In this document: positions 3,160-36,719 of the stretch, piece by piece | How the letters are laid out: the number at the start of each line of letters is the position of its first letter | Position numbering within the stretch: the stretch's first letter is position 1 | Virus record (IMG/VR): IMGVR_UViG_3300032116_000208 | Location: 1-59,976 of that record | From: a virus | Lineage: Duplodnaviria; Caudoviricetes | DNA: 59,976 nucleotides | Direction: 5' to 3' (one strand) | Program-made: the position numbers and the translations under genes | Notes under the pieces: model-generated | The model's input: only the letters and a program-made list of their open reading frames with translations | Databases searched by the model: none | What the model was told of the DNA's origin: nothing

Positions 3160-6100
3160 ATGCCTTTCGTACCACTCCGTACTGTTGTTGGAACCGATGA
3201 AGAAGATACTGGTTTCAAGCCGTTGCGGGATGTCTACTTGGGGCCAGCTCCGCAGCGTGGGGCCATTGCTGCCGGTCTTTCGGCTGGTGTAGACCAGCTT
3301 CAGGGGTTGGGTTATAGCGCTCTTGGTGGTGTTGCCGATATTGCGGGGGCAAGTGGAGCTCGTGATTGGGCCAACGAACAAGCCCGCCGTAATCAAGTTG
3401 ACGCTTCTGTTGGCGGTCGCCCCGACCTTGAGCGTATCGAAGATCAGTCGCTTGGTTCTGCGCTGCCGTACTTAGGCTACCAAGTTGCCAAACAAGTTCC
3501 AACGATGCTCGGCATTGCGGGCGCACAGCTTATCCCCGGCGCTGGCCAAGTTGCTGGCGCTGTAGGTCTTACGCGACTTGGTGCTGTTGCACCTCGTATG
3601 CTGGGCGGCGGCGGTTTGCAAGCTGGCTCTAGCGCTGCGGCACGTCGTGCCGCTTTGGCGCAGGGTGAAGTTTTTGGTACAGGCACGCTGGCTGGTTCTG
3701 CCATGGGTTTTGGCTCGCTTTATGGCGAGTCTGTTGAAGGTGGTGACCCAAGCCCATTTAAGTCTTTGGCGCTGGCTCCAATTTATGGCGCTGCTGAAGC
3801 TGTTCTTCCTGCTGTGTTGCAAGGCAGTTTGCGTGCGCCAGCTAGGTACTCCGGCAATATTGGTACTCGCATGGCTAAAGCGGGTGGGGTTGCTGGTGCG
3901 GGCGAAGCCTTAACCGAACTTGGCCAAAACGAACTTGAGATGGGTATGCGGTCAGACTTGACCGCCGAAGAAATGGCGTCTCGCCGCCTTAACGCAGCAG
4001 CAGCTGGCCTGATTGTTGGTGGTAGTTTGGGTACTGTTGGCGGTGTTCGTGGTCCACGACGCCCTGACACAGAGTCAGACCTGACTCAGCCATTGGATAC
4101 CACTACACGCCCAGACCCCAGCCAGTTTGTGACGCAAGACCAGACTGTCGGCCTGAAGAAATTCATTGATGTAAACACTGGGGTGGTGCGTCCATCCCGC
4201 AAAGACTATGAGAAACAGTTTGAGGCTGCGTTTAACGAGCCTAGTGGTCAGTTTGTTGCTGATGCTGCTACTGGCGTTGAACGTGAACTGACTGTCGGTG
4301 AGCTGATGCAGCGTGGCTCTACGGCCATGGACTTGACTCAGGACAAGCCTGCTGACACTGCTGCCGCAGCTACTGCGGCTACTAATGTAGCTACTACGCG
4401 TGATCCACGCGATGTGTTCTTGCGCGATGAGCTCAAGGTAATCCCGAACAACAATAGCCGTCAGCTGTTTACGCTGATGGAAGAGCAGGGTGTTGACCCT
4501 ACGTCCCCAGCCATGGTTCCTGTATGGAACTACGCCGCTGCAAAGTACATGACTCCAAGCCGTCTGACAAAGGCCACAGAGCTGATGGATGCAGCCATCA
4601 TTCAGTCCCGCAAGGAGGCACCAATTGGCACAGGAATTTCTACTGTACAGCAGCCTGCAGGAGGCGTGGGAGTCGGGGGCCCTGTCGTTCAAGGAAGTGT
4701 GGGAAATGCAGGACGCCCTGCTCCTGTCGCAGGAGCAATGGACGGAAGTGCCCCAGCAGCTGGAGCCCCACTTCAACAAGCTGGCATTCTTCCAGTCGCC
4801 CCCGGGCAACCATCTACCACTGTAACCACCGGAGCACCAAGTGGCCCTCAAGCCTCTCAAACCATCCAAACAGCGCCGCAAGGACAAACCGCTACCACCG
4901 TTCCAGCTGCCGCCCCAGTAAGGGCCAATACAACGCTGCGCTTGAACCAGCAGGAAAAGCTGCCCGGTGAAACCGACATTACCAACATCGCGGATATTGC
5001 CCGCATGACAGGTAACGCTGGTGGGATTGATGCTGTTCTGGAAGACGAGGCTGGCTTGCGTGCTGACCAACGCGACTTTACGGACGATGACCTCAACGCT
5101 GTGATTGAAGAGCAGGTAGGCAAAGGCAAGAACGCAGATCGTGACCGTCAGATTTTGCGTGCCTACATCACAGCACGTCGTGCTGTACCGAGCGGCTACA
5201 AGGGCAACATCGCCAAGGAAATCGCTGACTCGTTTGGCATCGCTGAATCGCGGGTACGTCAGATCGGCAACCCAGAAAAGCTGGCTGATATTGCAGTGTC
5301 CATGGGATTTGATCGCGCTCAGGTGTTTGATCGCTTGGGTATCCAGTCAGCCCAAAAAGCCTTGGCTACTGAGTTAGGCAAACTCGAAGGCGAACTGACA
5401 CGCCTGAAGGCCAAAGCCAAACCGACCAAAGCTGACATTGCTCGCATGGCAGAGCTGGATGAGCAGATTACTCGCATCAACGATGAAGTTGAAGCTGGCG
5501 ACATGGCCGCTGCGTTTAAAGAAGCTGGCATCGAAGGCGAAGCCGGGGAAGCGTTTGGCAACTTGGACGACGCTCGTGAATGGCAAAAGGCTAGCACTGC
5601 TGGTAGCCAGATGGCTGTTAAGTTGGTCTCCATTGCAGACACCATTGCTGAGTTGAAGACCGCTGCTGCGGAGTTGAATCAACTGGGTCTGGCCCAAGCT
5701 GAGGCTGCTGCCGCTGAGCGCATTAAAGAACTGACTGCCGAGTACCAAGCAATTGTGTCTGGCTACGAAGCCAAGCCAGAAGCTGCTGCTCCCAAGAAGG
5801 GCAAAGGTAAAGGCAAAGCTGCTGAGAAAGCCTCTGAAGAAAAAGACGCTGCCAAGGAAGCCGAAGCTGCCAAGTTCCGCGCCGAGCGTGCGGCCAAGCT
5901 GCAGGCTGACCGTAACGGCCTTGCCGTTGGCGATACTGTCAAGAACCCCAAGCTGGGCACTGGCGTGGTTAAGAGCTTCGCTGGCGATGGCGATGCAACC
6001 ACTGTTACTGTAGCGTTCCAGAGTGGGCAGACCAAAGAACTGTCAGTCAAACTGGCAAAACTGGAGAAAACCGATGCCGTTCAAGTCGAAAGCCCAGCAG

Positions 6101-9100
6101 GGGTATCTGTTCAGCCAAAAGCCGAAACTGGCGAAAAAGTGGGCCGACAAGTACGGCGTGCCCCAAAGCCTGCCGCAGAAGGTAAAGCCCAAGTCCCAGC
6201 CGTCATCCTCACCCAAGCCGAGCAAGCAGCCCAAGCGTGGGATGTAGTCGCTGCTGACTTCCCAGAGGCTCCCAAGTTTGCTGATCTGACCAAGGCCCAG
6301 CAGAACACATTCATTGGCTTCGGTGAAGGTAACTGGGAGCGTGGTGACGTTGAGCTTGAGCTGACCAAGTTGGCCCGCGCTGCTGCGCCTACGCAACGAG
6401 CTATACGTCTGCGCCACGGAACAACTGCAGCCAACAAGGCGATGATCGAAAAACTCGGTCACATGGACCCAGAAGGCGGTGAGCGCCAGTACACGTACTC
6501 TGAATTTGGTCGTAAAGCCGTGTACCTTACTCGCCCTGAAGGTTGGTGGTTGGACAAAGAAAAAGCCGCCGCTGGGCGTGCCGTTGTTTACGATTCCTAC
6601 GTGGACGTTGAACTGCCAAGCGATGCAAACGTAGTCACCATAAACAACATGGCTGACTTTGAAGCGTTGGCAAAACGCGTCGGCGAGTCCAGTGCAAAGT
6701 CGATGGCTAACAAGCTGGCTGTTGATGGTTTGGATTGGCTATCTCAAGCCAAAGAGCTTCGGTCTATCACGTTAGATCAGGCTGTCCAAAAGTACATACG
6801 CGAGCAGAAAGAAAGCGCCGCCAAGTACGGGGGCTTTGATACTAAGGGGGTCAACACGCTTGGCGAATTGGCGGACTTCCTAAATACCAACGTAAACAAT
6901 CAGTACACCCAAACAACAGAAGCTGAACTGCGTACGCGCATCCGCGACAACTGGCTTGACGCGAAGTCTTACGAACTAGACACGTTTGGCGAATCTGATG
7001 CAATGACACAGAAGCTGATTGACGCTGGGGTGGACGTTATTGACATAGCTCCAGACGCAGACGTTGGCGTTGCTGCAGATCAGGTTGTAGTGTTGCGCCC
7101 AGAACTGGTCAAACTTGCATCGGCTGTAAAACAGCAAGAGGCTTTCTTGCGCAAGTCGCGCCGCAGCGTTCGCACTGCTGACCAGAGCGGTGTGGAGTTT
7201 GAGTCTGTTGAGGCTTCGCTGGACGACCTGTCTAACTACTCCGAGGGCATTGCTGCTGGCATCCGTAGCCTGCGCGACGTTGACATGGGCAACGCTGTTG
7301 ACGCTATTGACTCATGGATGGTCACGTTCTCCCCAGTGTCGTGGGACGCCATCTACACCATGATCGACGGCAAGCGCACCATCATCTACAACGGTGTGAT
7401 TCTCAAGGACAAGGTTCTGTCTACTGTTGCTACTCTGCACGAAGTCGGCCATGGCATTGACGAGGTACAGGGCGGCGCTGGTAAGTTCTCTGGCGGTGCG
7501 GAGTTCAGGATGTCTCGGGTAAACGGCGAGCTGATGTCCATGCGCCCCGGCACGGTTGCAGACGAACTCTTGAACCACTGGGAAGATGCAAGCGAGACGT
7601 CAGCTTTGGGCGGTATGCTCAACTATCCGCTGGACATGACAGACCCGGAAAATCGCTCCCTGACGATGCAAGAGCTGCGTGAGGAAGTCTTTGCTCAGGT
7701 TTGGGCTTTCTCAAATCTGAACGGCGGCATGGATTACCTCCGTGATAACCTGCCCACGACACACGCTTTTATGGAGAAGGCACATGAACAAGTCAAAGCC
7801 ACAAACTACCAACGCGCCCAAGGTGCCCAGCAAGGTGCTCAGTCAGGACAAGTTCAAGCTGGACAGCAAAACGCGCAGCCTGCTGGGGCAGTTCTTAGAG
7901 CCAGCCGTCAAGCCAAACAAGGGCTGATCGACCGCAACATTGCCAAGCTGCCGAAGATGTCTCAGCAACCGGTACGTAACTTGGCCGGTGCTCTTGGTGA
8001 CATTGGAGGTGCTGGTCTGGACTACGTTGTGTTCACCAGTGACTTGGTCAAGCGTGCTGTTGCCGCTGGCCTGCCTGCTGCTCAGACTTTCTCCGACCGT
8101 CTTGCTTCGCGTAACGCCAAGGTCAGTGAAGAGGAACGCAAGATCGAAAAGATTGCAGACCGCTATGCGTCCATTGAGGACGACGCCAAGGGCAGTGGCC
8201 CCGGCTCGGTCAACGAGTTCTTGTTTGAGTCCACCCGCACAGGCAAGTGGGGCTATGGCAAGTTCCGTGACGCCAAGATGGGCGCTGCGTTCGATGCGTT
8301 GGGCCCCAAGGCTCAGCAGTTCGTCAAGGACGTGTTTGCCCATGGTGACGCCACGCTGTCCAACAAGAAGAAGATTGTCTTGGACGCAGCCAACTCTGAG
8401 TACGACGCCATGATTAAGGCAGCTCAGGACGCTGGTGACACCAAGACTGAGGCTACTCTCAAGGCTGAGAAAGCCGCTACGCTCAAGCGCTTTCAGACAC
8501 TGTTCCGCATCCGCGAGGGCATGCCTTATGCGCCCATCAAGCGCACTGGTTCGTATGTGGTAATCGGCGAGTCTGCTGAGTACCAAAAAGCCAAGGCTAA
8601 CAAAGACACCGCCACGCTCAAGAAGCTGGAGTCTGACCCAGACCATTACCATGTGTCGTTCACAGACACCAAGTGGCAAGCCCGTAGCCTGCGTGACAGA
8701 CTAGCAGAGCAAGGCGTGTTCACTGACCCGCAAGTTGTTTCTCGCTCTGAGTCCTTTGACGAGGCGTTCAGTGGTGAGGCCATGCTGCCAGCCCTGACAA
8801 AGATGCGTGCCGCTGTGGATCGCCGTGCTCAGGACTCTACTGGCAAGAAAGACCCGACTGCTGGCAAGCTGCTCAACATCATCAACCAGTTGTACTTGGA
8901 GGCGTTGGCTGAGGGTAGTGCTCGCAAGTCTGAGATGCGTCGTCGTGGTGTAGCCGGTGAAGTGGACATGCTCCAGTCGTTCACCCAGCAAGGTCGTGCC
9001 GATGCCAACTTCTTGGCCAGCGTTGAGTTTGAGCCTAAGATTCAGGATGCCTTGCAACAGATGCGTAACCAGTCACGCACTGGCGACCGCGAACGCAAGT

Positions 9101-10674
9101 CCGAAATCTTCGACGAGTTGACCAAGCGCTACGCAGGTACGCTGGACCCACAGCCAAGCCCGTTCATCAACGGTCTGACCAACATGGCGTCCAAGTTCTT
9201 CTTGGCCTCCAGCCCCGGCTACTACTTGCAGAACTTGACACAGCCGTTCATGATGTCCCTGCCTGCCATGGCAGGTCGTCACGATTACACCAAAGCTGCC
9301 GCTGAGCTGGCCAAGGCGTACGGTGAGTTGGGCCCACTGTTCAAGGATGTGAAGCTGTTCGACGAGCAGTTTGACTTCTCCAAGGTGCCTGCTGACGTGC
9401 GTAAAGCCATCAACGAGTTGGTCAACCAAGGCAAGATTGACATTGGTCTGGCCACTGAGATCAACGAGTACAAGGTAGAAGCCGACAACAAACTCAGCAA
9501 GTTTGCGCAGCGTTTGAACAAGGGCATGCGCTTGGCCGTGCAGAAAGTGGAAGCTACCAACCGCCTGTCTACTGCCATTGCTGCCTACCGTTTGGAGTTC
9601 GCCCGGACTAAGGACGCTGACAAGGCAACCCAGTACGCTGCTGACATCCTGACTGACACCCATGGTGACTACACAGCCTTCAACGCTCCTCGTGCGTTCA
9701 ACACCCAGTGGGGTAAGGTGGCTTTGCAGTTCCGCAAGTTCCAGTTGATTCAGATCGCGTTCTACTCCAAGCTGGTTCGTGACGCGTTCACCAATCCTGC
9801 CGAGCGTGCAGCAGCCATGAAGACTCTGGCCTATTCGCTGAGCCACACTGCCGTGTTCGCTGGCATGATGGGCTTGCCCGGCTACGCTGCCATTTCTGCA
9901 ATCTTGGGCTTCTTCGGTGACGAGGACGAGCCGTACGATCTGACTGCTGAAATGCGCAAGGCGCTTGGCCCTGAGTGGGCTAACATCATCATGCGTGGCG
10001 CTCCAACCGTTGTGGGTATGGACTTGTCCGGCAAGATCGGCGCTGGCAACATGCTGTCCATCATGCCATTCAGTGACGCTGACTTGAGCACCAACGCAGG
10101 TCGCGCCGAAGCTTTCGGTACATTGATTGGTGGTGCAGCTTTGGGGATGACATCCCGCATCATTGACGGCCTTGGCCTGATTGCCAGCGGTGACTACTAC
10201 AAGGGTGTTGAGCGTGTTATGCCAAAGGGTGTGTCCGACGCGCTCAAAGCTGCACGCCAAGGTGCTGAAGGTATGACTCGCCGCAACGGCGATGTGGTCT
10301 TGCCCGACAGTGAGATCAGCTCCCTCGACACAGTATTTACTGCGTTGGGTGTGCCTGCTGTAGAGCAGACTGTAACCTACGAGCGTCAGAACCGCATGCG
10401 CGATTTGACCAAGAACTTCCAAGACCGCACCACGCGTATCAAGAACGACTACGCCAAAGCTGTCCGCGAGAAGGACACTGCTGCCATGGCCGAAGCCCGC
10501 ACTGCATGGACTAAACTCCAGCAGGCTCGCCAGCGTAACGGCTTGACACCACAGCCAGTATCCAGCCTGCTGAAAGCACCGCAGGAACAGAAGGCTCGTG
10601 AGCAGCGCACCGTAGGTGGTGTACAGTACCGCGAAGGCCAGCGTAAACTGGCAGAATCCGTAGCAGCAGATTAA
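3160..10674 (+). CDS. Giant polyvalent internal virion protein (sigma4-like HTH, Tudor/SH3, ART-like, HExxH zincin, PLxRFG-like)
   Basis: 2504 aa; motifs EIADSFGIAESRVRQI, GDTVKNPKLGTGVV, RHGT..AVYLT, HEVGH..EEVFA, YAPIKRTGSY; follows the ejection genes. Confidence 0.8.
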   Translation: MPFVPLRTVVGTDEEDTGFKPLRDVYLGPAPQRGAIAAGLSAGVDQLQGLGYSALGGVADIAGASGARDWANEQARRNQVDASVGGRPDLERIEDQSLGSALPYLGYQVAKQVPTMLGIAGAQLIPGAGQVAGAVGLTRLGAVAPRMLGGGGLQAGSSAAARRAALAQGEVFGTGTLAGSAMGFGSLYGESVEGGDPSPFKSLALAPIYGAAEAVLPAVLQGSLRAPARYSGNIGTRMAKAGGVAGAGEALTELGQNELEMGMRSDLTAEEMASRRLNAAAAGLIVGGSLGTVGGVRGPRRPDTESDLTQPLDTTTRPDPSQFVTQDQTVGLKKFIDVNTGVVRPSRKDYEKQFEAAFNEPSGQFVADAATGVERELTVGELMQRGSTAMDLTQDKPADTAAAATAATNVATTRDPRDVFLRDELKVIPNNNSRQLFTLMEEQGVDPTSPAMVPVWNYAAAKYMTPSRLTKATELMDAAIIQSRKEAPIGTGISTVQQPAGGVGVGGPVVQGSVGNAGRPAPVAGAMDGSAPAAGAPLQQAGILPVAPGQPSTTVTTGAPSGPQASQTIQTAPQGQTATTVPAAAPVRANTTLRLNQQEKLPGETDITNIADIARMTGNAGGIDAVLEDEAGLRADQRDFTDDDLNAVIEEQVGKGKNADRDRQILRAYITARRAVPSGYKGNIAKEIADSFGIAESRVRQIGNPEKLADIAVSMGFDRAQVFDRLGIQSAQKALATELGKLEGELTRLKAKAKPTKADIARMAELDEQITRINDEVEAGDMAAAFKEAGIEGEAGEAFGNLDDAREWQKASTAGSQMAVKLVSIADTIAELKTAAAELNQLGLAQAEAAAAERIKELTAEYQAIVSGYEAKPEAAAPKKGKGKGKAAEKASEEKDAAKEAEAAKFRAERAAKLQADRNGLAVGDTVKNPKLGTGVVKSFAGDGDATTVTVAFQSGQTKELSVKLAKLEKTDAVQVESPAGVSVQPKAETGEKVGRQVRRAPKPAAEGKAQVPAVILTQAEQAAQAWDVVAADFPEAPKFADLTKAQQNTFIGFGEGNWERGDVELELTKLARAAAPTQRAIRLRHGTTAANKAMIEKLGHMDPEGGERQYTYSEFGRKAVYLTRPEGWWLDKEKAAAGRAVVYDSYVDVELPSDANVVTINNMADFEALAKRVGESSAKSMANKLAVDGLDWLSQAKELRSITLDQAVQKYIREQKESAAKYGGFDTKGVNTLGELADFLNTNVNNQYTQTTEAELRTRIRDNWLDAKSYELDTFGESDAMTQKLIDAGVDVIDIAPDADVGVAADQVVVLRPELVKLASAVKQQEAFLRKSRRSVRTADQSGVEFESVEASLDDLSNYSEGIAAGIRSLRDVDMGNAVDAIDSWMVTFSPVSWDAIYTMIDGKRTIIYNGVILKDKVLSTVATLHEVGHGIDEVQGGAGKFSGGAEFRMSRVNGELMSMRPGTVADELLNHWEDASETSALGGMLNYPLDMTDPENRSLTMQELREEVFAQVWAFSNLNGGMDYLRDNLPTTHAFMEKAHEQVKATNYQRAQGAQQGAQSGQVQAGQQNAQPAGAVLRASRQAKQGLIDRNIAKLPKMSQQPVRNLAGALGDIGGAGLDYVVFTSDLVKRAVAAGLPAAQTFSDRLASRNAKVSEEERKIEKIADRYASIEDDAKGSGPGSVNEFLFESTRTGKWGYGKFRDAKMGAAFDALGPKAQQFVKDVFAHGDATLSNKKKIVLDAANSEYDAMIKAAQDAGDTKTEATLKAEKAATLKRFQTLFRIREGMPYAPIKRTGSYVVIGESAEYQKAKANKDTATLKKLESDPDHYHVSFTDTKWQARSLRDRLAEQGVFTDPQVVSRSESFDEAFSGEAMLPALTKMRAAVDRRAQDSTGKKDPTAGKLLNIINQLYLEALAEGSARKSEMRRRGVAGEVDMLQSFTQQGRADANFLASVEFEPKIQDALQQMRNQSRTGDRERKSEIFDELTKRYAGTLDPQPSPFINGLTNMASKFFLASSPGYYLQNLTQPFMMSLPAMAGRHDYTKAAAELAKAYGELGPLFKDVKLFDEQFDFSKVPADVRKAINELVNQGKIDIGLATEINEYKVEADNKLSKFAQRLNKGMRLAVQKVEATNRLSTAIAAYRLEFARTKDADKATQYAADILTDTHGDYTAFNAPRAFNTQWGKVALQFRKFQLIQIAFYSKLVRDAFTNPAERAAAMKTLAYSLSHTAVFAGMMGLPGYAAISAILGFFGDEDEPYDLTAEMRKALGPEWANIIMRGAPTVVGMDLSGKIGAGNMLSIMPFSDADLSTNAGRAEAFGTLIGGAALGMTSRIIDGLGLIASGDYYKGVERVMPKGVSDALKAARQGAEGMTRRNGDVVLPDSEISSLDTVFTALGVPAVEQTVTYERQNRMRDLTKNFQDRTTRIKNDYAKAVREKDTAAMAEARTAWTKLQQARQRNGLTPQPVSSLLKAPQEQKAREQRTVGGVQYREGQRKLAESVAAD
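4625..4825 (+). CDS. Nested +1-frame ORF A (66 aa) in the giant gene
   Basis: AAGGAGG at 4612-4618, TTG start 6 nt later; globular-looking product over a low-complexity linker of the host gene. Confidence 0.6.
   Translation: MAQEFLLYSSLQEAWESGALSFKEVWEMQDALLLSQEQWTEVPQQLEPHFNKLAFFQSPPGNHLPL
6074..6247 (+). CDS. Nested +1-frame ORF B (57 aa, MPFKSKAQ-type basic protein)
   Basis: GGAG at 6063-6066, ATG 6074; N-terminus resembles small stand-alone basic phage proteins. Confidence 0.65.
   Translation: MPFKSKAQQGYLFSQKPKLAKKWADKYGVPQSLPQKVKPKSQPSSSPKPSKQPKRGM
7784..7927 (+). CDS. Nested +1-frame ORF C (47 aa)
   Basis: GGAGAAGG upstream, ATG 7784; overlies the Q/A/G linker after the zincin domain. 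Confidence 0.4.
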   Translation: MNKSKPQTTNAPKVPSKVLSQDKFKLDSKTRSLLGQFLEPAVKPNKG

Positions 10675-11757: not shown

Positions 11758-11787
11758 ATCATACCTCGTTGGCTGCTGCATCGTCAA
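11758..11787 (-). promoter_or_regulatory. Sigma70 promoter TTGACG-N18-TATGAT for the sRNA
   Basis: -35 at 11787-11782, -10 at 11763-11758, inside the last codons of the primase gene. Confidence 0.7.
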
Positions 11788-14700
11788 ACTGGCTCGTCAC
11801 CAACGTCAACACTGGCGTGGCTGAGTCTGCGTTCAAGCGTCGTGTGTCCACGACAATGCAACGTGTCTGCTGCGACGTGCAGTCAGTACCACGCGTGATG
11901 ACAAACTTCTCACCCTGAGACACAAGCGCGTTGGCTTCCTTGATGCTGGCCACCATTGAATGGTAGTCCATGCGGTGAGCCATGCACCATTCCCGCACTT
12001 CCTTCTGAGACAAGATCAAGCGACCAGCTAGTTCTTTGCTGTTGGCCGTACCTAGGATGTAGCGCCCAGCGATAGGGCCATTGACTCTGTTGCGCGGGGT
12101 CTCAGGGCCACGTCCATCACGGCTGTCACGGCACTCGGTAGTGACAATAATTCGCTGGCTCAGCATGCTAATCATGCGCTGGAACGCATCTTCAGACGAC
12201 ACGGTGTTGTTCTCTTCAACCGAATCAGACAGCTCACGCAGCAGGTTCACGGTGAATTTGTACAGCTCACGGATATCAAACTCCACAATGCCCAGCTTCT
12301 TGGCGATCTTGGCAATCACGATGGTACATGCGCTGTGAGCCCGGTAGAAACGGAACTTGGGATTGGACAGCACCTCAGTGAACTTGCCCAGCATGGTCTG
12401 CATGTCGCGGTAGACCTCGGCTTCATTGGCCAGAATGTACTTGACCATGGCCGCACCAGCATGGCCAGAGTTGGCAGTCATCTTCTTGATGTTCTCGGCA
12501 GCTACCATGGCAGACGCTGACCTCCATGCATCCTCACCCTCTTCTGTGTCCGGGTACAAGCCTCGGTCTACCAGCATCAGCGGGTCGTAGCGGTCCACGT
12601 TGAGCTGAATCAGGCGCACGGCCTCGGCCTGTGAGTTGGCTTGGTTAGCCGCCAGCAACCCGTAGAAGTCACGGTTGCCAGTCACGTATACGTTCAGCCG
12701 CCACTCGGATGACTTGGCGAACACCACACCGCCGCCCTTGGATGTAAGGCGAACCTTCTCTTGGCCGTTGGATACGCCATAGGCTACGTCACTGAACACG
12801 CCAGCTTCCATGTTGGTCAGCTCATCAGCCAGCACAGGGATGTTGTTGTACACACCCAGCGTAGCCCACAGCGCGTTGGTGGTGAAGCCCTCCTTGGAGT
12901 TGAGCGTCATCTTCTCAGGGTTGCCGAACGCAGCCAGCGCGGCGTGACATGCGGTAGTCTTACCCCGGCCAGACTTGCCGCCTTGCAGGGCCAGAATCAA
13001 GCCCTTGTACAGGTCTTCGCAGTGGTGCGATACCAGTGAGCCCCAGCCAGCGCATACGGTGTATTGCCAGTGAACGGCCTCCGGTCTGTTGTACATAAAG
13101 TTCATGGCCTCGGCGTAGCCTTCCAAGCTGCCACGGCCATTCTTGAAAGCGTTGGCACGCTCCTTGGCGTTGCCACCCACCAGTACTTTGCGCTCTGTGC
13201 CGTCTTGGGCGAACAGCGTCTCACCGATAAGGAACGACTTGTGGTCATCCTTCCAGCCAAAGGCTGTCATGGTGTTGGTCTCAGTGATGCTGCGCTTTAA
13301 GGACTGCAGTTGGTCCAGCAAGTATGCCGCCATGTGCTCTCCAGCGTTTTTGTGGTTGCTCTTCGTGAGCTCGTATCGGGCCATAGCCCTCAGCAAATCC
13401 GTTGGTGATGCCACGGACTCACCTGAAATCTCAAAGTCACGGATGCGCTTGTCTGGTAGGTGCAGCCGGATGCCATAACGGAACGTGCCGTCTTCGCCAC
13501 GGATACGGGTGGTTGGGTAGAACAGGTTCTCACAGAACGGGAAAATCTGCATGACCCCTTCCTTGTCGGGGATGAGGCGGCTCAGCAGCCCAGCGTCCCA
13601 CTGGTATCCGCGAGGCAGCGCTGGTATGGTCGCTTGCTCTGCAACACCTTCCTCAGTAACAGTCTCAGCAGTAGTTTCTTCTGGCTCCGGCATCACCCGG
13701 CCCAGCACCAGCGGGGTCTTGACCTTGTCTTTGAACGAGCAGCCCGTGCAGCCGTCAGGGTTGCACTTGCTGAAGAACTCGCACGTCGTTGGTCCAGCAG
13801 TCCATGTGTCGTAGCGGATGTCCCAGTCAACTTGGCCATGGCCAGTTTCTTCGCGCTTGGAACTCCATGACTGAGCTAGCTCACGACCGTCAACGCAGTG
13901 GGTCAGCAGACCGATAACGCCGCGCCAAGTCTCGTAGTCCACGTCACCCATGGTGTCGCGCATCTTGCCAGCCTGCAGACACTTGTCAGCCATGACGTTG
14001 GCGTCTACCGGGACTTCAGGGTATTGGGTCAGGTGCGCCGTCAGGTCTGAGTTCAGGTCAGTCGGCTGATACTGTTTCTTGGGTGTCTCTTTGACAGGCT
14101 TGACGCCATTGGCTTTGGCGTAGTCAAACAGCGTTACAGCAAATTCTTTGGGGTCAATCGGCTCGCATGTAGCTATGACCTTGACCGTCTTAGCGTCGCC
14201 GTTCTTGCGGTTTGTAGAGCCCGCAGGGCGCAGGATAGAACTGAAGTCAGCCGTACGTGTAGGGTCAGCGATGACCTTGGCGTGGGCCAGCGTAGCCTTG
14301 AGGACTGTAGCCACCTTGCGCCACAGCTCATGGCCGATCTCATGGGTCAGGGGCCAGTAGGCATGGATGCCGTTGCCCGAATCCACCAGCATGGGGCGTG
14401 GGATACCGACGTCTTTGGCGAACTTGGCCATGGCCACACAAGCGTCTTTCTTGGTCAGGTAGCCCTGCCCCTTGTCGAACTTGTCTTGGCCGCAGTCAAC
14501 GTCCACCCAGAACGCCTTGGCCTTGTCCCAGTTCTCAGGTATTCGATACTTGCGCTTGGGGTTGCCTTTGATGTCGAGCTCTTCCAACTCGATCACGGCT
14601 TTTTGATACGTCGCACACGCATGGTACACAGACAGCTGCTTGCTATCAGCCATACCATCAATGGCTTCGGCCATTGTCTCAAGGTCAGTGTAGACCTTGT

Positions 14701-14791
14701 GTGCTGGGAATTTGTAGCCCTCTTTGAACAGGGCGAGGTAATGGATGCCGAACTCCGGCAGTATCGTCTTGAGAAACTCAAGGGTGTTCAT
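11759..14791 (-). CDS. DNA primase (AEP/RepB-like) - DUF927/helicase fusion
   Basis: WVDVD and VDSGNGIHAYW primase motifs, Cys cluster (TCEFFSKCNPDGCTGC), FGW motif, Walker A GKSGRGKTT, DE Walker B. Confidence 0.85.
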   Translation of the reverse strand: MNTLEFLKTILPEFGIHYLALFKEGYKFPAHKVYTDLETMAEAIDGMADSKQLSVYHACATYQKAVIELEELDIKGNPKRKYRIPENWDKAKAFWVDVDCGQDKFDKGQGYLTKKDACVAMAKFAKDVGIPRPMLVDSGNGIHAYWPLTHEIGHELWRKVATVLKATLAHAKVIADPTRTADFSSILRPAGSTNRKNGDAKTVKVIATCEPIDPKEFAVTLFDYAKANGVKPVKETPKKQYQPTDLNSDLTAHLTQYPEVPVDANVMADKCLQAGKMRDTMGDVDYETWRGVIGLLTHCVDGRELAQSWSSKREETGHGQVDWDIRYDTWTAGPTTCEFFSKCNPDGCTGCSFKDKVKTPLVLGRVMPEPEETTAETVTEEGVAEQATIPALPRGYQWDAGLLSRLIPDKEGVMQIFPFCENLFYPTTRIRGEDGTFRYGIRLHLPDKRIRDFEISGESVASPTDLLRAMARYELTKSNHKNAGEHMAAYLLDQLQSLKRSITETNTMTAFGWKDDHKSFLIGETLFAQDGTERKVLVGGNAKERANAFKNGRGSLEGYAEAMNFMYNRPEAVHWQYTVCAGWGSLVSHHCEDLYKGLILALQGGKSGRGKTTACHAALAAFGNPEKMTLNSKEGFTTNALWATLGVYNNIPVLADELTNMEAGVFSDVAYGVSNGQEKVRLTSKGGGVVFAKSSEWRLNVYVTGNRDFYGLLAANQANSQAEAVRLIQLNVDRYDPLMLVDRGLYPDTEEGEDAWRSASAMVAAENIKKMTANSGHAGAAMVKYILANEAEVYRDMQTMLGKFTEVLSNPKFRFYRAHSACTIVIAKIAKKLGIVEFDIRELYKFTVNLLRELSDSVEENNTVSSEDAFQRMISMLSQRIIVTTECRDSRDGRGPETPRNRVNGPIAGRYILGTANSKELAGRLILSQKEVREWCMAHRMDYHSMVASIKEANALVSQGEKFVITRGTDCTSQQTRCIVVDTRRLNADSATPVLTLVTSQFDDAAANEV

Positions 14792-17818: not shown

Positions 17819-18048
17819 TGGTTGAGTGAGTCGTTCAGGAGAATCGCTTCGTCTGTAACGTGATCCCCCCATGTTTGAAGCCAGTATTTCTCCTGCAATT
17901 CCAACTCGCGTTGGGTGTGATGGCACACACGCTCGTACTTTAGAGCTAGCTGCCGTGCTCGCGCCGTTGTCACCCCGAGAACTTTTCCTGCTTTCTCGTA
18001 AGTAAGGCCCTGCGTGTGCTTTAGATTCCATGCAAGGCAGTACCGCAT
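17812..18048 (-). CDS. Small sigma4-like HTH protein
   Basis: GLTYEKAGKVLGVTTARARQL. Confidence 0.6.
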   Translation of the reverse strand: MRYCLAWNLKHTQGLTYEKAGKVLGVTTARARQLALKYERVCHHTQRELELQEKYWLQTWGDHVTDEAILLNDSLNQC

Positions 18049-34143: not shown

Positions 34144-34170
34144 GTATGTATACACACCTATAGGTGTGTA
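34144..34170. promoter_or_regulatory. Operator-like palindromes (GTATGTATACACAC overlapping perfect TACACACCTATAGGTGTGTA)
   Basis: 1-mismatch 14-mer at 34144-34157; 20-bp palindrome at 34151-34170. Confidence 0.65.
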
Positions 34171-34172
34171 GG

Positions 34173-34343
34173 TTATCTACTGAATCGTTCGGCCAAGTAT
34201 TCGCGGTATGCGAACTCGGGGTCGTCCATGTCCAATGGACTTGTGTCTGTTGAGGCCTCGAAAACGAACGGCTCATCGAGGGGTTCGTCCATGTGCGTAT
34301 ACACACGTTCGGTTGTTGGCAGGATGAAATAGTGTCGGGACAT
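34173..34343 (-). CDS. 56-aa acidic early protein
   Basis: AGGAG RBS; D/E-rich. Confidence 0.65.
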   Translation of the reverse strand: MSRHYFILPTTERVYTHMDEPLDEPFVFEASTDTSPLDMDDPEFAYREYLAERFSR

Positions 34344-34358
34344 GATGACTCCTATGGT

Positions 34359-34372
34359 GTGTGTATACACAC
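34359..34372. promoter_or_regulatory. Operator-like palindrome GTGTGTATACACAC
   Basis: Perfect copy just upstream of an RBS; variant at 34293-34306. Confidence 0.7.
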
Positions 34373-34373
34373 C

Positions 34374-34701
34374 TATCCAAGGTTGATGGGGTAATTAGAC
34401 AGAATTTATTGGGCTTGTCTAATTAGGTGGGCGCTCGAAACCCGCATGGATACTGGGCTAGCGGGGTGATGTTAAGGTTTACCCTTGTCGAATTATCCAA
34501 GTCGGAAAAAGGGGGTCAGGAATTTTAGGGGGCTTCATGATGTGTGGCGCTTGGCGCTTCATGCACGAACAAACACACGCATCGTCATGTGCATCCTAAA
34601 TACTTGGATAATTGGATAATTGTCTAATTGCAGATGTAACCCCTTGATTTTAAAGAGAAACCTAATTATCCAAGGGCAAAAGCCCCTTGGATAATTGGAT
34701 A
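34374..34701. repeat. Iteron-like AATTATCCAAG/TTGGATAA array with IHF consensus (candidate origin)
   Basis: Non-coding; several direct and inverted copies; AATCAAGGGGTTA on - at 34649-34637. Confidence 0.6.
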
Positions 34702-34706
34702 GTCAG

Positions 34707-34724
34707 ATGTGTGTATACACACAT
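34707..34724. promoter_or_regulatory. Operator-like palindrome ATGTGTGTATACACACAT
   Basis: 18-bp perfect palindrome. Confidence 0.7.
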
Positions 34725-35218
34725 TAGGCAGTGATAGCGGCTTGCTTGGCTTTGGCATCGGCAGAATACGCCTCAGCATCGGCAACCATGTCAGTGGCGA
34801 CTGCCTTGAGTTCCATCAATTTGGCCAGTGTCGCACCTGCCTTGAGTGCGCCAGTCTTTTTATCGGTAACCATACCGCCAGTCTTGGACAGCTTGGCCTT
34901 CATGATACGTGCCTCGAATTGGTCAGGCAGTGACTCGAAAGCCGCACGATTGGAGATAACCATTGGCTCACCGAGTTGTGCGGCAAAGTATTCGCCAACT
35001 GGACGATAGTTGCATGAAGGCCATGCGGCTTGCTTGGCCAGAGCTTGGACACCACCATTGGCGATGCCATTACGTGCGGCTACACCAAGTTTGCCCTTGG
35101 CATTGGCGAGCGCCATTTTGGTGTAAGGGCTTGAGTCTTGCACGACAGACAGCTGTCGCTCAGTCTTGGTTTTGCCAGTTACGTTGATGATTGCGGGAGT
35201 GTAAGTTGCGAGTTCCAT
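34724..35218 (-). CDS. First gene of the early arm, Ala/Lys-rich hypothetical protein
   Basis: CAACACAAGGA leader, start MELATY. Confidence 0.8.
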   Translation of the reverse strand: MELATYTPAIINVTGKTKTERQLSVVQDSSPYTKMALANAKGKLGVAARNGIANGGVQALAKQAAWPSCNYRPVGEYFAAQLGEPMVISNRAAFESLPDQFEARIMKAKLSKTGGMVTDKKTGALKAGATLAKLMELKAVATDMVADAEAYSADAKAKQAAITA

Positions 35219-35252
35219 GATATTTCCTTGTGTTGAATGATTGAACGGTGAC

Positions 35253-35770
35253 AATGCACCACATAGCCCACTGGTGCCAATGAGCTATAGGTTGAATTGG
35301 TTTTGCGACTTGCTGTTCTTGGTGTCGCCCGAGACCTCACCGGCCCTTGTTCATAGGTGACCGTTACCTGCGACCGTGATTCAACGGTGCGTCTGACTCT
35401 AGGGTTCTTGCCTAGTCCGTCCCGCAGATGCTCAGATACTCGGTTTTGTGGGTGGCCTAATGATTCGATCACGGGTTGTCTCTCGACAAAGCGTTCGCCC
35501 TGTGTGTTGCCCGCCAATGGACAGCGCACACTCAAGCGTTATCGGGTTAATTCGCCCCTTACCACAAACCCACCGAAGTGAGATGCGATTGCGTGCCCTC
35601 GACTATTCACACGCACCTATTCACGCCACTGAATAGGGATTCCAATACGAATTTTTAAAGACCGGATTCCATCAAAAGCCCCTTACCATGTGACCGCATC
35701 AACCCTGAGGTATCCGCACGCACCTGTCCCTAAGTCCAGCCGCTAGTCGATAAAGAACAATCTCACACGG
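35253..35770 (-). ncRNA. Putative large structured leader RNA
   Basis: No credible ORF; nested long-range helices, GAGA tetraloop, boxA-like motif. Confidence 0.5.
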
Positions 35771-35797
35771 AGCGAACGGTGCGATCACCGCTCAATG

Positions 35798-35848
35798 TAG
35801 GCAACCTTGATAACTCAGAGTCCCTACACAATAGGCAACCTTGATAAC
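35798..35848. repeat. 17-bp direct repeat TAGGCAACCTTGATAAC x2
   Basis: 35798-35814 and 35832-35848. Confidence 0.9.
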
Positions 35849-35936
35849 CGACCACCCCCCACAGGCCCCCCAACGGGCCACCCCGCCCCCCGACTGCTTA
35901 CGACGCGCTCAATCATCATGAGCAAAAAATCAAGAC

Positions 35937-36009
35937 GTGTGTATACACACCTGTTGCGTAAAAACCACAAAAAATACGAAAAAACCCGGTAGAATGTGTG
36001 TATACACAC
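35937..36009 (+). promoter_or_regulatory. Candidate late-arm promoter (-10 TAGAAT) flanked by two GTGTGTATACACAC palindromes
   Basis: Palindromes 35937-35950 and 35996-36009; TAGAAT 35990-35995; no consensus -35. Confidence 0.65.
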
Positions 36010-36025
36010 CTTTTAAGGACCAAAA

Positions 36026-36217
36026 ATGAAGCGCTGGAACCTGTTTTTGCCCCCCGAACTCATCGAAAAATACAAGCAAATGGCCACCAAAAAGGGCGTT
36101 TCGTCGGCAGAAATGGCCCGAATTGCCATGGAAAAGTACGCTCAGGCCGTGGAAAAAGCTAAAGCGCGAGGTGACGAGACGCAAAAACAGGCTGCGGAGA
36201 CTGCAAATGCTGGCTGA
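36026..36217 (+). CDS. Ribbon-helix-helix (Arc/CopG-like) regulator
   Basis: KRWNLFLP.ELIEKYK.MA.KKGVS.AEM.R.AM..Y; TAAGGA RBS. Confidence 0.85.
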   Translation: MKRWNLFLPPELIEKYKQMATKKGVSSAEMARIAMEKYAQAVEKAKARGDETQKQAAETANAG

Positions 36218-36719
36218 TGACACCCCAATGGACGATACGCCTCTGGAGTACAAGCCAAAAAACACCTCATTCCCGCAGATAAGCGAGGAGATGGTAGCCT
36301 CGGTAGCTTTGGGGCTGGAAGATGAGCTGATCGTGGCCAGTCGGCACGGTCTGTCGGTCGAGCAGTACCAAGAGTTGGCCGCGCAGCCGTGGTTTCAGCT
36401 CCAAATTCAGGTAAAACGGTCCGAGTACGAGAAAAATGGCGTCACGTTCAAGGCCAAGGCTGCATGGATGGCCGGGGAGTTGCTCGATCAGGTGTACGTC
36501 ACTGCGGCGTCCCAAGATGCCAGCTTGAACCAGAAGCACGAAGTCCTCAAGACGCTCATCAAGGCCGCAGGTCTGGAGCCCAAGGAGGAAAAAGTCAAGG
36601 ACACTGGGCCGGGATTCAGTATCAGCATCGACTTGGGAGGTGGCCAGTCCATATCCCTGAGCAACCAGCAGACCCTCACGCCGGTTACACTGGACGCAGA
36701 GGTCAAGGAGATTAAGTGA
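36207..36719 (+). CDS. terS: Putative terminase small subunit
   Basis: Immediately upstream of and overlapping TerL; helical with GFSISIDLG C-terminal strand. Confidence 0.6.
   Translation: MLADDTPMDDTPLEYKPKNTSFPQISEEMVASVALGLEDELIVASRHGLSVEQYQELAAQPWFQLQIQVKRSEYEKNGVTFKAKAAWMAGELLDQVYVTAASQDASLNQKHEVLKTLIKAAGLEPKEEKVKDTGPGFSISIDLGGGQSISLSNQQTLTPVTLDAEVKEIK

Follow-up and report, generated by a model that had tools for sequence, protein, structure and literature searches.

The protein described here, P0001, has 2504 residues and is encoded by an uncultured, podovirus-like phage of about 60 kb, known from the IMG/VR virus record IMGVR_UViG_3300032116_000208. The window analysed is the whole virus record (59,976 bases), which has a completeness rating of 100%. 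Constant N- and C-terminal parts of P0001 frame a mosaic centre, which consists of a helix-turn-helix (HTH), a spacer, a Tudor domain, a conserved domain, an ADP-ribosyltransferase (ART)-fold domain and a HEXXH zincin-like domain. The HTH resembles region 4 of sigma-70 factors and the Tudor domain is of the UvrD/PcrA type. As both modules derive from families whose cellular job is to contact RNA polymerase (RNAP), we propose that they target host transcription: P0001, once ejected, would be brought to the host transcription machinery by these two domains, and the ART would use nicotinamide adenine dinucleotide (NAD+) on a target there. We give this proposal somewhat less than an even chance.

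An earlier note on this DNA had seen in three stretches a possible RNAP-hijacking module. All three belong to one reading frame of one open reading frame (ORF), nucleotides 5140-5265, 5920-6069 and 6403-7113 corresponding to residues 661-702, 921-970 and 1082-1318, respectively. The gene and the domains in question are as follows.

3160..10674, + strand: ORF of P0001, a large polyvalent / PLxRFG protein by its matches to NF032893 and phrog_10089, with an AAGGGG Shine-Dalgarno-like motif 6-11 nt 5' of the ATG
5077..5364, + strand: sigma-70 region-4-like HTH, residues 640-735, with the Pfam core at 660-702, the recognition helix at 695-702 (AESRVRQI) and an RpoS-like C-terminal tail (Pfam, PDB profile, model)
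5920..6069, + strand: Tudor domain of the UvrD/PcrA type, residues 921-970 (Pfam, NCBIfam, PDB profile, homologues)
6403..7113, + strand: ART-fold domain, residues 1082-1318 (AlphaFold model, structure searches, family alignment)
6415-6417, 6523-6525 and 7078-7083, + strand: predicted ART residues H1086 (strand 1), Y1122 (strand 2) and D1307-Q1308 (immediately ahead of the last strand)
Within the ART fold: helical insert of about 125 residues, model residues 90-214, which are residues 1164-1288 of P0001

The HTH and the Tudor domain

By score the sigma-4 assignment is the weakest of the three domain calls, all of which are beyond chance. Sigma70_r4 is the best Pfam family in all 11 aligned homologues (22.0 bits and E = 1.1e-4 for the top one) and scores 15.7 bits when P0001 is scanned as a whole. 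A profile of these homologues (alignment A2) has 25 matches in the PDB at E ≤ 10, and 23 of them belong to region 4 of sigma factors. RpoS ranks first (E = 0.0043), with an alignment that takes in region 4.1 and the recognition helix and reaches the RpoS C-terminal tail. Among sigma-70-family factors RpoS (PDB 7f0r, 6fi7) is the closest; the order of helices is the same, and the SRVRQI of P0001 is matched by RERVRQI in RpoS. The AlphaFold model of the HTH contains six helices, with a predicted local distance difference test (pLDDT) value of 85.5. When the model was compared with all representative structures, sigma region 4 took 17 of the 25 top rows. The best row had a Z-score of 5.3 and a root-mean-square deviation (rmsd) of 2.6 over 65 residues, and RpoS region 4 gave Z = 5.1 over 74 residues. 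Foldseek placed sigma-4 chains at six of its ten top ranks in the PDB with E values of 0.38-0.55, rank 1 being a truncated haemoglobin. For the HTH and ART models the comparison with all representatives gave maximum Z values of 5.3 and 6.7, and Foldseek found no PDB match at E ≤ 0.001 for either model.

The recognition helix and the residues following it are the best conserved part of the domain, RVRQIGNPE being invariant in the 11 homologues. Of the sigma-70 residues that contact the -35 element, R586, R588 and Q589 have retained counterparts in P0001, which has Glu and Ser at the places of R584 and E585. Pfam scans found no match to Sigma70_r2 or Sigma70_r3 in P0001. Because regions 2 and 3 are absent, P0001 is not a sigma factor, and on its sequence and model the HTH is best described as a captured region-4-like domain.

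The assignment of the second stretch to the C-terminal Tudor domain of UvrD/PcrA has also stood. As an isolated piece it scores 25.4 bits against PcrA_UvrD_tudor (PF21196; cut-off 23.9, E = 1.3e-5), covering positions 1-48 of 48. The score in the scan of the whole protein is 19.1 bits. A phmmer search of the PDB with the whole of P0001 gave four matches, all of them UvrD/PcrA C-terminal domains. The alignment of the domain (A3) comprises 12 phage homologues that are 74-98% identical to P0001, and its profile matched 11 PDB sequences at E ≤ 1. Nine of these are UvrD/PcrA/UvrD1 C-terminal domains, the best being that of D. radiodurans UvrD (E = 3.5e-8); the remaining matches, at E = 0.66 and 0.78, are noise. 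The final 65-80 positions of the NCBIfam uvrD and pcrA models align to the stretch (E = 9e-7 to 5e-5). PcrA_UvrD_tudor is matched by all 12 homologues, five of which also touch CarD_TRCF_RID weakly. In the helicases (PDB 4c2t, 5dma, 7egs, 6yi2) the domain forms the C-terminus of a superfamily 1 enzyme, whereas in P0001 it is internal (residues 921-970 of 2504) and not an appendage of a helicase; Pfam and NCBIfam scans found no helicase domain in P0001.

The PcrA domain is necessary and sufficient for the pull-down of RNAP, and the H681A, W684A, K712A and L714A mutations each nearly abolish it (PMC5397179). The ligand of the PcrA/UvrD Tudor domain is a TGE-tipped hairpin in the SI1 insert of the RNAP β subunit, and UvrB has an equal motif (PMC8318588). 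In the PDB profile alignment K712, L714 and the cage residue F705 of PcrA correspond to K959, L961 and F953 of P0001. These three residues, together with N929 and L932, are invariant in the 12 phage homologues. A TGE-type hairpin motif, strict or loose, does not occur in the six frames of the phage, and therefore, if the Tudor domain binds such a hairpin, its partner is not phage-encoded. Co-folding of the Tudor alignment with residues 140-460 of E. coli RpoB, a stand-in for the host protein, scored 0.51, and one unrelated control scored 0.58.

The two domains were traced with hidden Markov models built here in a set of 120 homologous proteins of 1456-3137 residues, nearly all metagenomic, that was collected by a search with residues 640-1340. 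Both are present in 66 of these; the Tudor domain occurs alone in 17, the HTH alone in eight, and 29 have neither. The association has an odds ratio of 14 (p = 2e-9, shared descent not corrected for). Where both are present they are separated by 144-249 residues (median 173).

The ART-fold domain and the mosaic centre

Residues 1082-1318 belong to no Pfam or NCBIfam family. A HMMER search over 1.84 billion representatives with this domain returned 58 proteins at E ≤ 1e-3, 36 of them at E ≤ 1e-10. The 58 representative clusters, one of which is a false positive, define an ART-fold family that has no Pfam model. The false positive, P0132, was considered as a multi-copy ART on account of its 13 matched stretches and was rejected as a PKD-repeat protein. 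The family members are either proteins of about 160-660 residues or giant proteins, and the matched part is mostly the first 120 residues or so. In an alignment of 22 sequences (A1) an HGT motif, a Tyr and a Trp are invariant, and the C-terminal end has a [D/E]-Q-hydrophobic strand. Conservation was counted in 66 sequences, namely the query and 65 members of the family, a set that excludes P0001, P0002 and P0132:

His: kept in 66 of 66
Tyr1122 equivalent: kept in 65 of 66
Gln: kept in 57 of 66 (8 gaps)
Asp/Glu: kept in 41 of 66 (14 gaps)

The AlphaFold model calculated from A1 has a pLDDT of 92.8 and a predicted template modelling score of 0.84. H1086 is at the end of strand 1 (model residues 8-14), Y1122 is in the strand formed by residues 47-50, and D1307-Q1308 precede the strand at 234-237; this describes the placement of the residues on the predicted strands. 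Against all PDB representatives the model matches 21 chains at Z ≥ 5 and none at Z ≥ 8. By title, 24 of the 26 top rows (Z = 4.8-6.7) are PARP, diphtheria/cholix/exotoxin-A-type or ART/RES toxin proteins, led by MbcT (Z = 6.7, rmsd 4.0, 121 residues) together with diphtheria toxin (Z = 6.7). RES toxins share the ART fold. PARP domains fill nine of the ten top Foldseek rows in the PDB, at E values of only 0.15-0.73. Among viral predicted structures (BFVD) the top match is a 'PolyVal ADP-Ribosyltransferase' (E = 2.2e-4), which is followed by a PARP-catalytic-domain protein (2.6e-3) and by ART-PolyVal-like proteins from two phages, Dickeya phage JA11 and Salmonella phage Mutine. ART-PolyVal is also carried by 19 of the 30 named clusters that are language-model neighbours of the domain; the recognition value of 2253 is just below the 2300 mark of the tool, and this evidence is therefore weak. 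The links by sequence to known ARTs are faint. An hhalign comparison with a true ART-PolyVal domain covers only the C-terminal motif (probability 12%, E = 0.0024), and one of the 22 aligned family members touches the ART-PolyVal family PF18760 (E = 0.0035).

An ART-like fold had been expected for this stretch with T4 Alt as the model. The fold has been supported; the kinship with Alt has not, because it is His, Tyr and [D/E]Q that are conserved and the Alt-type motifs (Arg, Ser-x-Ser, Glu) are lacking. According to Iyer et al., ARTs of polyvalent proteins have an H-Y-D site, in contrast to the R-S-E site of T4 Alt (PMC5512222); the P0001 domain fits the former. Alt, which modifies the α subunit of RNAP, is a particle-borne ART delivered with the DNA, as is predicted for P0001. 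It is cited as the model for the ARTs of polyvalent proteins, but it is of the R-S-E clade and is not part of a polyvalent protein (PMC5512222). ART-PolyVal (PF18760, of the Tox-ART-HYD2 clade with an H-Y-D site) is closer. P0001 shares with it the His of strand 1, the Tyr of strand 2 and an acid preceding the last strand, and it is the best viral structure match. The P0001 domain differs from it in having no Pfam match, in the helical insert, and in a Gln that is better kept than the adjoining acid. We read residues 1082-1318 as a divergent ART-PolyVal-like family for which an NAD+-dependent activity is predicted from sequence and model.

The substrate of such an enzyme could be something other than RNAP or another protein. 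The domain might degrade NAD+ in the manner of RES/MbcT toxins, or it might ADP-ribosylate or process nucleic acid as do DarT and Tpt1/KptA, the RNA 2'-phosphotransferase, and thereby weaken a defence that depends on NAD+, or label DNA or RNA. Besides MbcT, the top structure rows contain the NatT, Xre-RES and VPA0770 toxins and DarT1 (Z = 4.3), and faint matches to Tpt1 are present: the family profile meets yeast Tpt1 (7yw4) at the 'HGT' strand (E = 0.34), and the Pfam family PTS_2-RNA, that of Tpt1, is touched by two of the 22 aligned members (best E = 0.12). The near-invariant residue of the last motif is, moreover, the Gln and not the acid. Protein-directed ARTs of the PARP and diphtheria type nevertheless score equally with the RES toxins (Z = 5.0-6.7), and the nearest viral models and language-model neighbours are ART-PolyVal, which are predicted to modify host proteins (PMC5512222). 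A non-protein substrate is in our opinion improbable, though by no means far-fetched.

Two further observations concern this fold. In P0144 (1612 residues), a member of the family, the ART (residues 390-483) is followed by a GGDEF diguanylate cyclase domain (residues 625-711), which is another combination of the polyvalent type. Residues 1418-1601 of PDB 9k3a chain B, from the pre-ejectosome of cyanophage A4, resemble the ART model with Z = 6.6 and an rmsd of 3.6 over 122 residues. The main text of the A4 structure paper contains neither 'ADP-ribosyl' nor 'ribosyltransferase' (PMC12002296), and this segment of a podophage ejection protein may be an ART-like domain that has gone unremarked.

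Within the 120 homologues, BLAST mapping distinguishes the parts of P0001 that are constant from one that is replaceable. Residues 1587-2504 are covered in 105-119 and residues ~966-1080 in ~88-110 of the homologues, compared with only 11-21 for residues 1082-1318. The ART-fold family is present in 11 of the 120. In other homologues the slot is filled by 0 to 1136 residues of other sequence, such as a true ART-PolyVal domain of PF18760 in P0076 (101 bits), a ParB_N domain with a weak YkuD match in P0082, or LPD23 in P0006; in three further homologues that were scanned Pfam recognised no family. The breakpoints of the cassettes in P0002-P0120 are sharp and recurring, near residues 552-587, 966-972, 1073-1082, 1307-1332 and 1580-1594 of P0001, which suggests frequent recombination at fixed linkers.

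The joint module of the earlier note is not supported for the ART, whose slot is swappable and which has no tie to the HTH/Tudor pair. The modules could even be independent effectors. The Tudor domain would be a decoy on the hairpin of UvrB and/or RNAP and would keep away the host helicase (one of repair or R-loop removal, or a UvrD-like defence helicase), the HTH would bind DNA, for instance the incoming genome, and the ART would act elsewhere. RNAP and UvrB are known to compete for the PcrA C-terminal domain by means of the TGE hairpin (PMC8318588). Polyvalent proteins have been described as disparate activities that are released by zincin peptidases (PMC5512222), and a HEXXH domain follows the ART in P0001. 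The separate recombination of the modules, with the Tudor domain or the HTH on its own in some homologues and the ART in any combination, agrees with this explanation. On the other hand, homologues that have both the HTH and the Tudor domain far outnumber those with one of them alone, which shared descent could also explain, and both the protease activity and the cleavage are only predicted. We consider independent effectors unlikely, but worth keeping in mind.

Protein class, predicted delivery and proposed targeting of host transcription

Residues 1830-2484 of P0001 match the NCBIfam model NF032893 ('PLxRFG domain-containing protein') with 307.1 bits (cut-off 100) over profile positions 24-672 of 681. 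The C-terminal part also matches phrog_10089 ('DarB-like antirestriction', E = 8.1e-60) at positions 4038-4640 of 4647, the C-terminal end of that profile. By sequence P0001 is a member of the PLxRFG class of large polyvalent proteins, and it combines several unrelated domains (HTH, Tudor, ART-fold, HEXXH, PLxRFG) in one polypeptide that is encoded among virion genes. A tblastn search of 50,697 phage records with P0001 found 66 records of less than 60% identity, all of which align to only the C-terminal 22-29% of the query. The matched genes are giant ones annotated as DarB-like, PLxRFG, methylase or helicase; they belong to phages of about 57-63 kb that infect Pseudomonas, Klebsiella, Erwinia, Rhizobium, Vibrio and other hosts.

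The virion genes of the phage begin at about 36 kb, fill the rest of the record and resume at its start. They include those for the terminase, a portal/adaptor protein, the major head protein, tail fibres, an internal virion protein, a 1349-residue tail fibre and a virion structural protein. The gene for P0001 is the last large gene of this block, and replication genes come next on the opposite strand. Polyvalent proteins are multi-domain proteins that were proposed by Iyer et al. (2017) to be packaged and delivered together with the DNA (PMC5512222; PMC9503650). In JC1, a Bcep22-like podovirus, the giant DarB-like protein gp69 was detected in CsCl-purified virions with 51 unique peptides, and its gene has the same genome position as that of P0001 (PMC9144972). 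We infer an association of P0001 with the virion from its PLxRFG class, from its position at the end of the virion block and from the analogy with JC1 gp69; class and gene position likewise suggest that it is packaged and ejected. Of the idea that P0001 is a virion-injected protein, what can be retained is its membership of a class for which packaging and ejection are predicted; its own ejection is a matter of analogy.

The pair might also act inside the particle, where the HTH and the Tudor domain would hold packaged DNA or core proteins in a pre-ejectosome-like body and would have no host target. Within the capsid of cyanophage A4, the ejection proteins hold on to a ring of genomic DNA (PMC12002296), a chain of the A4 pre-ejectosome (9k3a_B) resembles the ART-fold model as mentioned above, and DNA binding is typical of HTH domains. 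However, the domains are of the sigma-4 and UvrD/PcrA families specifically, the known partners of which are RNAP and UvrB, and the phage encodes no partner motif of the TGE type. The lack of both domains in 29 of the 120 homologues and the swappable slot are unlike a structural requirement. An in-particle role is quite improbable.

Under the reading that we prefer, in which the pair brings P0001 to host transcription, the protein would enter the cell together with the DNA. The Tudor domain would bind an exposed hairpin, of the kind bound by UvrD and PcrA, on the RNAP β subunit (and on UvrB), and the sigma-4-like domain would bind the usual partners of region 4, namely the β-flap tip and/or promoter-like DNA. 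Jointly they would place P0001 on the host transcription machinery, where the NAD+-using ART, or other slot cargo in the relatives, would modify RNAP or an RNAP-bound factor. The zincin domain may cut the polyprotein into working parts. Docking on RNAP, reading of phage DNA and modification of RNAP by P0001, which the earlier note had combined, are hypothetical.

A more specific form of the proposal is a two-point clamp on host RNAP. A sigma region-4 mimic at the β-flap tip or promoter DNA and the Tudor domain at the β SI1 hairpin, connected by a helical spacer of about 170 residues, would form a platform for interchangeable cargo, which in P0001 is the ART, and transcription would be re-programmed at the entry of the DNA without a phage RNAP. 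We regard the clamp in this detailed form as doubtful. The phage had been described as lacking an RNAP of its own, and indeed RNA polymerase domains (PF04563, PF00940) were not detected in the 59,976-base record; this negative is weak because the PF00940 control matched in no genome.

A number of results weigh against the targeting of host transcription. All three modules occur together in only four of the 120 homologues, and four others have the ART with neither the HTH nor the Tudor domain; because the ART is inherited independently of the pair, the idea that docking delivers the ART to RNAP has no support from co-inheritance. The isolated HTH piece scores 22.3 bits against Sigma70_r4 (PF04545; E = 9.5e-5), just under the cut-off of 24.1, and its fold Z-scores are modest (maximum 5.3). 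Two of the four residues that PcrA needs for the pull-down of RNAP are replaced, H681 by N929 and W684 by L932, so that with the Lys, Leu and Phe retained the binding face is partly kept and partly re-made. The same Tudor surface binds UvrB and other proteins, and thus RNAP is not the sole candidate (PMC8318588). The acid that precedes the conserved Gln is missing or unaligned in 25 of the 66 ART family members. A protein substrate is no more than a candidate for the ART, because NAD+-degrading RES/MbcT toxins and the DNA- or RNA-directed DarT and Tpt1 are among the structures that it matches. In the 50,697 phage records the P0001 gene has no megablast match and the Tudor and ART pieces have no tblastn match at E ≤ 1e-3, and bacterial genome contigs scanned with residues 640-1335 and with the PLxRFG domain contained no relatives of P0001. 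Packaging, RNAP binding and enzyme activity are predicted properties of P0001 and its close relatives, the phage being uncultured.

That ARTs are carried by injected polyvalent proteins, with T4 Alt as their model, is already in print (PMC5512222; PMC9503650). We found no description in the literature of a polyvalent protein that combines a UvrD/PcrA Tudor domain with a domain like sigma region 4, although the supplementary domain tables of the 2017 survey may list such domains. The words 'Tudor' and 'sigma' do not occur in the main text of PMC5512222, nor does 'Tudor' in PMC9503650.

If the proposal of RNAP targeting is true, virion-borne copies of host modules that contact RNAP represent a novel means of directing injected effectors to the transcription machinery, and function becomes testable for a part of the large, unannotated space of polyvalent proteins. 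If the pair is instead a decoy for UvrD, the recruitment of a host helicase would be the phage target. The case is of moderate interest because two RNAP-derived modules give a concrete, testable hypothesis of virion-borne RNAP targeting. To our knowledge, few strategies are known by which phages seize host transcription at the instant of infection, T4 Alt and the virion RNA polymerase of N4 being examples.

Remaining parts of P0001 and of the genome

The other parts of the protein are listed below. Pfam and NCBIfam have no family for residues 1-639, 985-1080, 1075-1335, 1335-1600 and 1600-1900.

3160..5076, + strand: N-terminal part, residues 1-639, with a Gly/Ala-rich first 330 residues, a conserved stretch at about 330-560 and an A/G/P/T/Q-rich linker at 480-640 (composition, homologue coverage)
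5365..5904, + strand: HTH-Tudor spacer, residues 736-915, presumably helical (25% A, 14% E, 12% K)
6112..6399, + strand: conserved domain without a family, residues 985-1080, the most widely shared central part (covered in ~88-110 of the 120 homologues)
7162..7917, + strand: putative zincin-like metallopeptidase domain, residues 1335-1586, with HEVGH at residues 1427-1431 (7438-7452) (motif, language-model leads)
8647..10611, + strand: PLxRFG C-terminal domain, residues 1830-2484, a constant module common to the giant 'DarB-like' proteins of cultured phages (NF032893, tblastn)

The language-model leads for the HEVGH domain are weak and point to clusters of Peptidase_M90, ATLF and Phage_min_cap2. 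Zincin-type peptidases have been proposed by Iyer et al. to process polyvalent proteins (PMC5512222). With its HEXXH motif and these leads, the domain is a putative peptidase of this kind.

P0001 resembles the large polyvalent or PLxRFG 'DarB-like' proteins of podoviruses of about 60 kb, such as JC1 gp69, in being a giant multi-domain protein that ends the virion module and has a PLxRFG C-terminal domain. The mosaic centre with an ART and a HEXXH domain is a further likeness, as are the ART-PolyVal, ParB_N and LPD23 domains that some of its relatives carry. It differs from these proteins in lacking a methylase or helicase (DarB) part and in having the sigma-4-like HTH and the UvrD/PcrA Tudor domain. 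The PLxRFG proteins of cultured phages differ in that they align only with its C-terminal end.

Directly after the giant gene the replication block of the opposite strand opens with 11759-14791 (- strand), which encodes a 1010-residue primase/helicase-like protein (phrog_25314, E = 3e-73). A search of the phage record for tRNA genes was negative. A second weak Sigma70_r4-like match (17.9 bits, E = 1.4e-4) is located at 17947-18048 (- strand) in an open frame of 105 residues among the early genes; on this match the product may be a small HTH regulator.

The earlier note had seen no consensus -35 element ahead of the early leader and took this to fit its reading. The absence is uninformative, for a sigma-70-type promoter scan found no promoter-like sites in 35000-36400, where 1.0 ± 0.9 were expected. 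The 17-base direct repeat TAGGCAACCTTGATAAC lies at 35798-35848 of the window, with its copies 34 bases apart, and the genome contains no further copy with ≤3 mismatches (0.13 expected). It was considered as a target of the HTH and was rejected: there are two copies only (35798 and 35832), and no link to P0001.

The 14-base perfect palindrome GTGTGTATACACAC has four exact copies (34359, 34709, 35937 and 35996) and two with one mismatch (34144 and 34293). All are in the divergent regulatory region (34144-36009), and chance would give only 0.2 matches. A small ORF at 36027 has its start flanked by the last two copies, and its product may be a ribbon-helix-helix protein. The copies of the palindrome are probably operator sites of a phage regulator.

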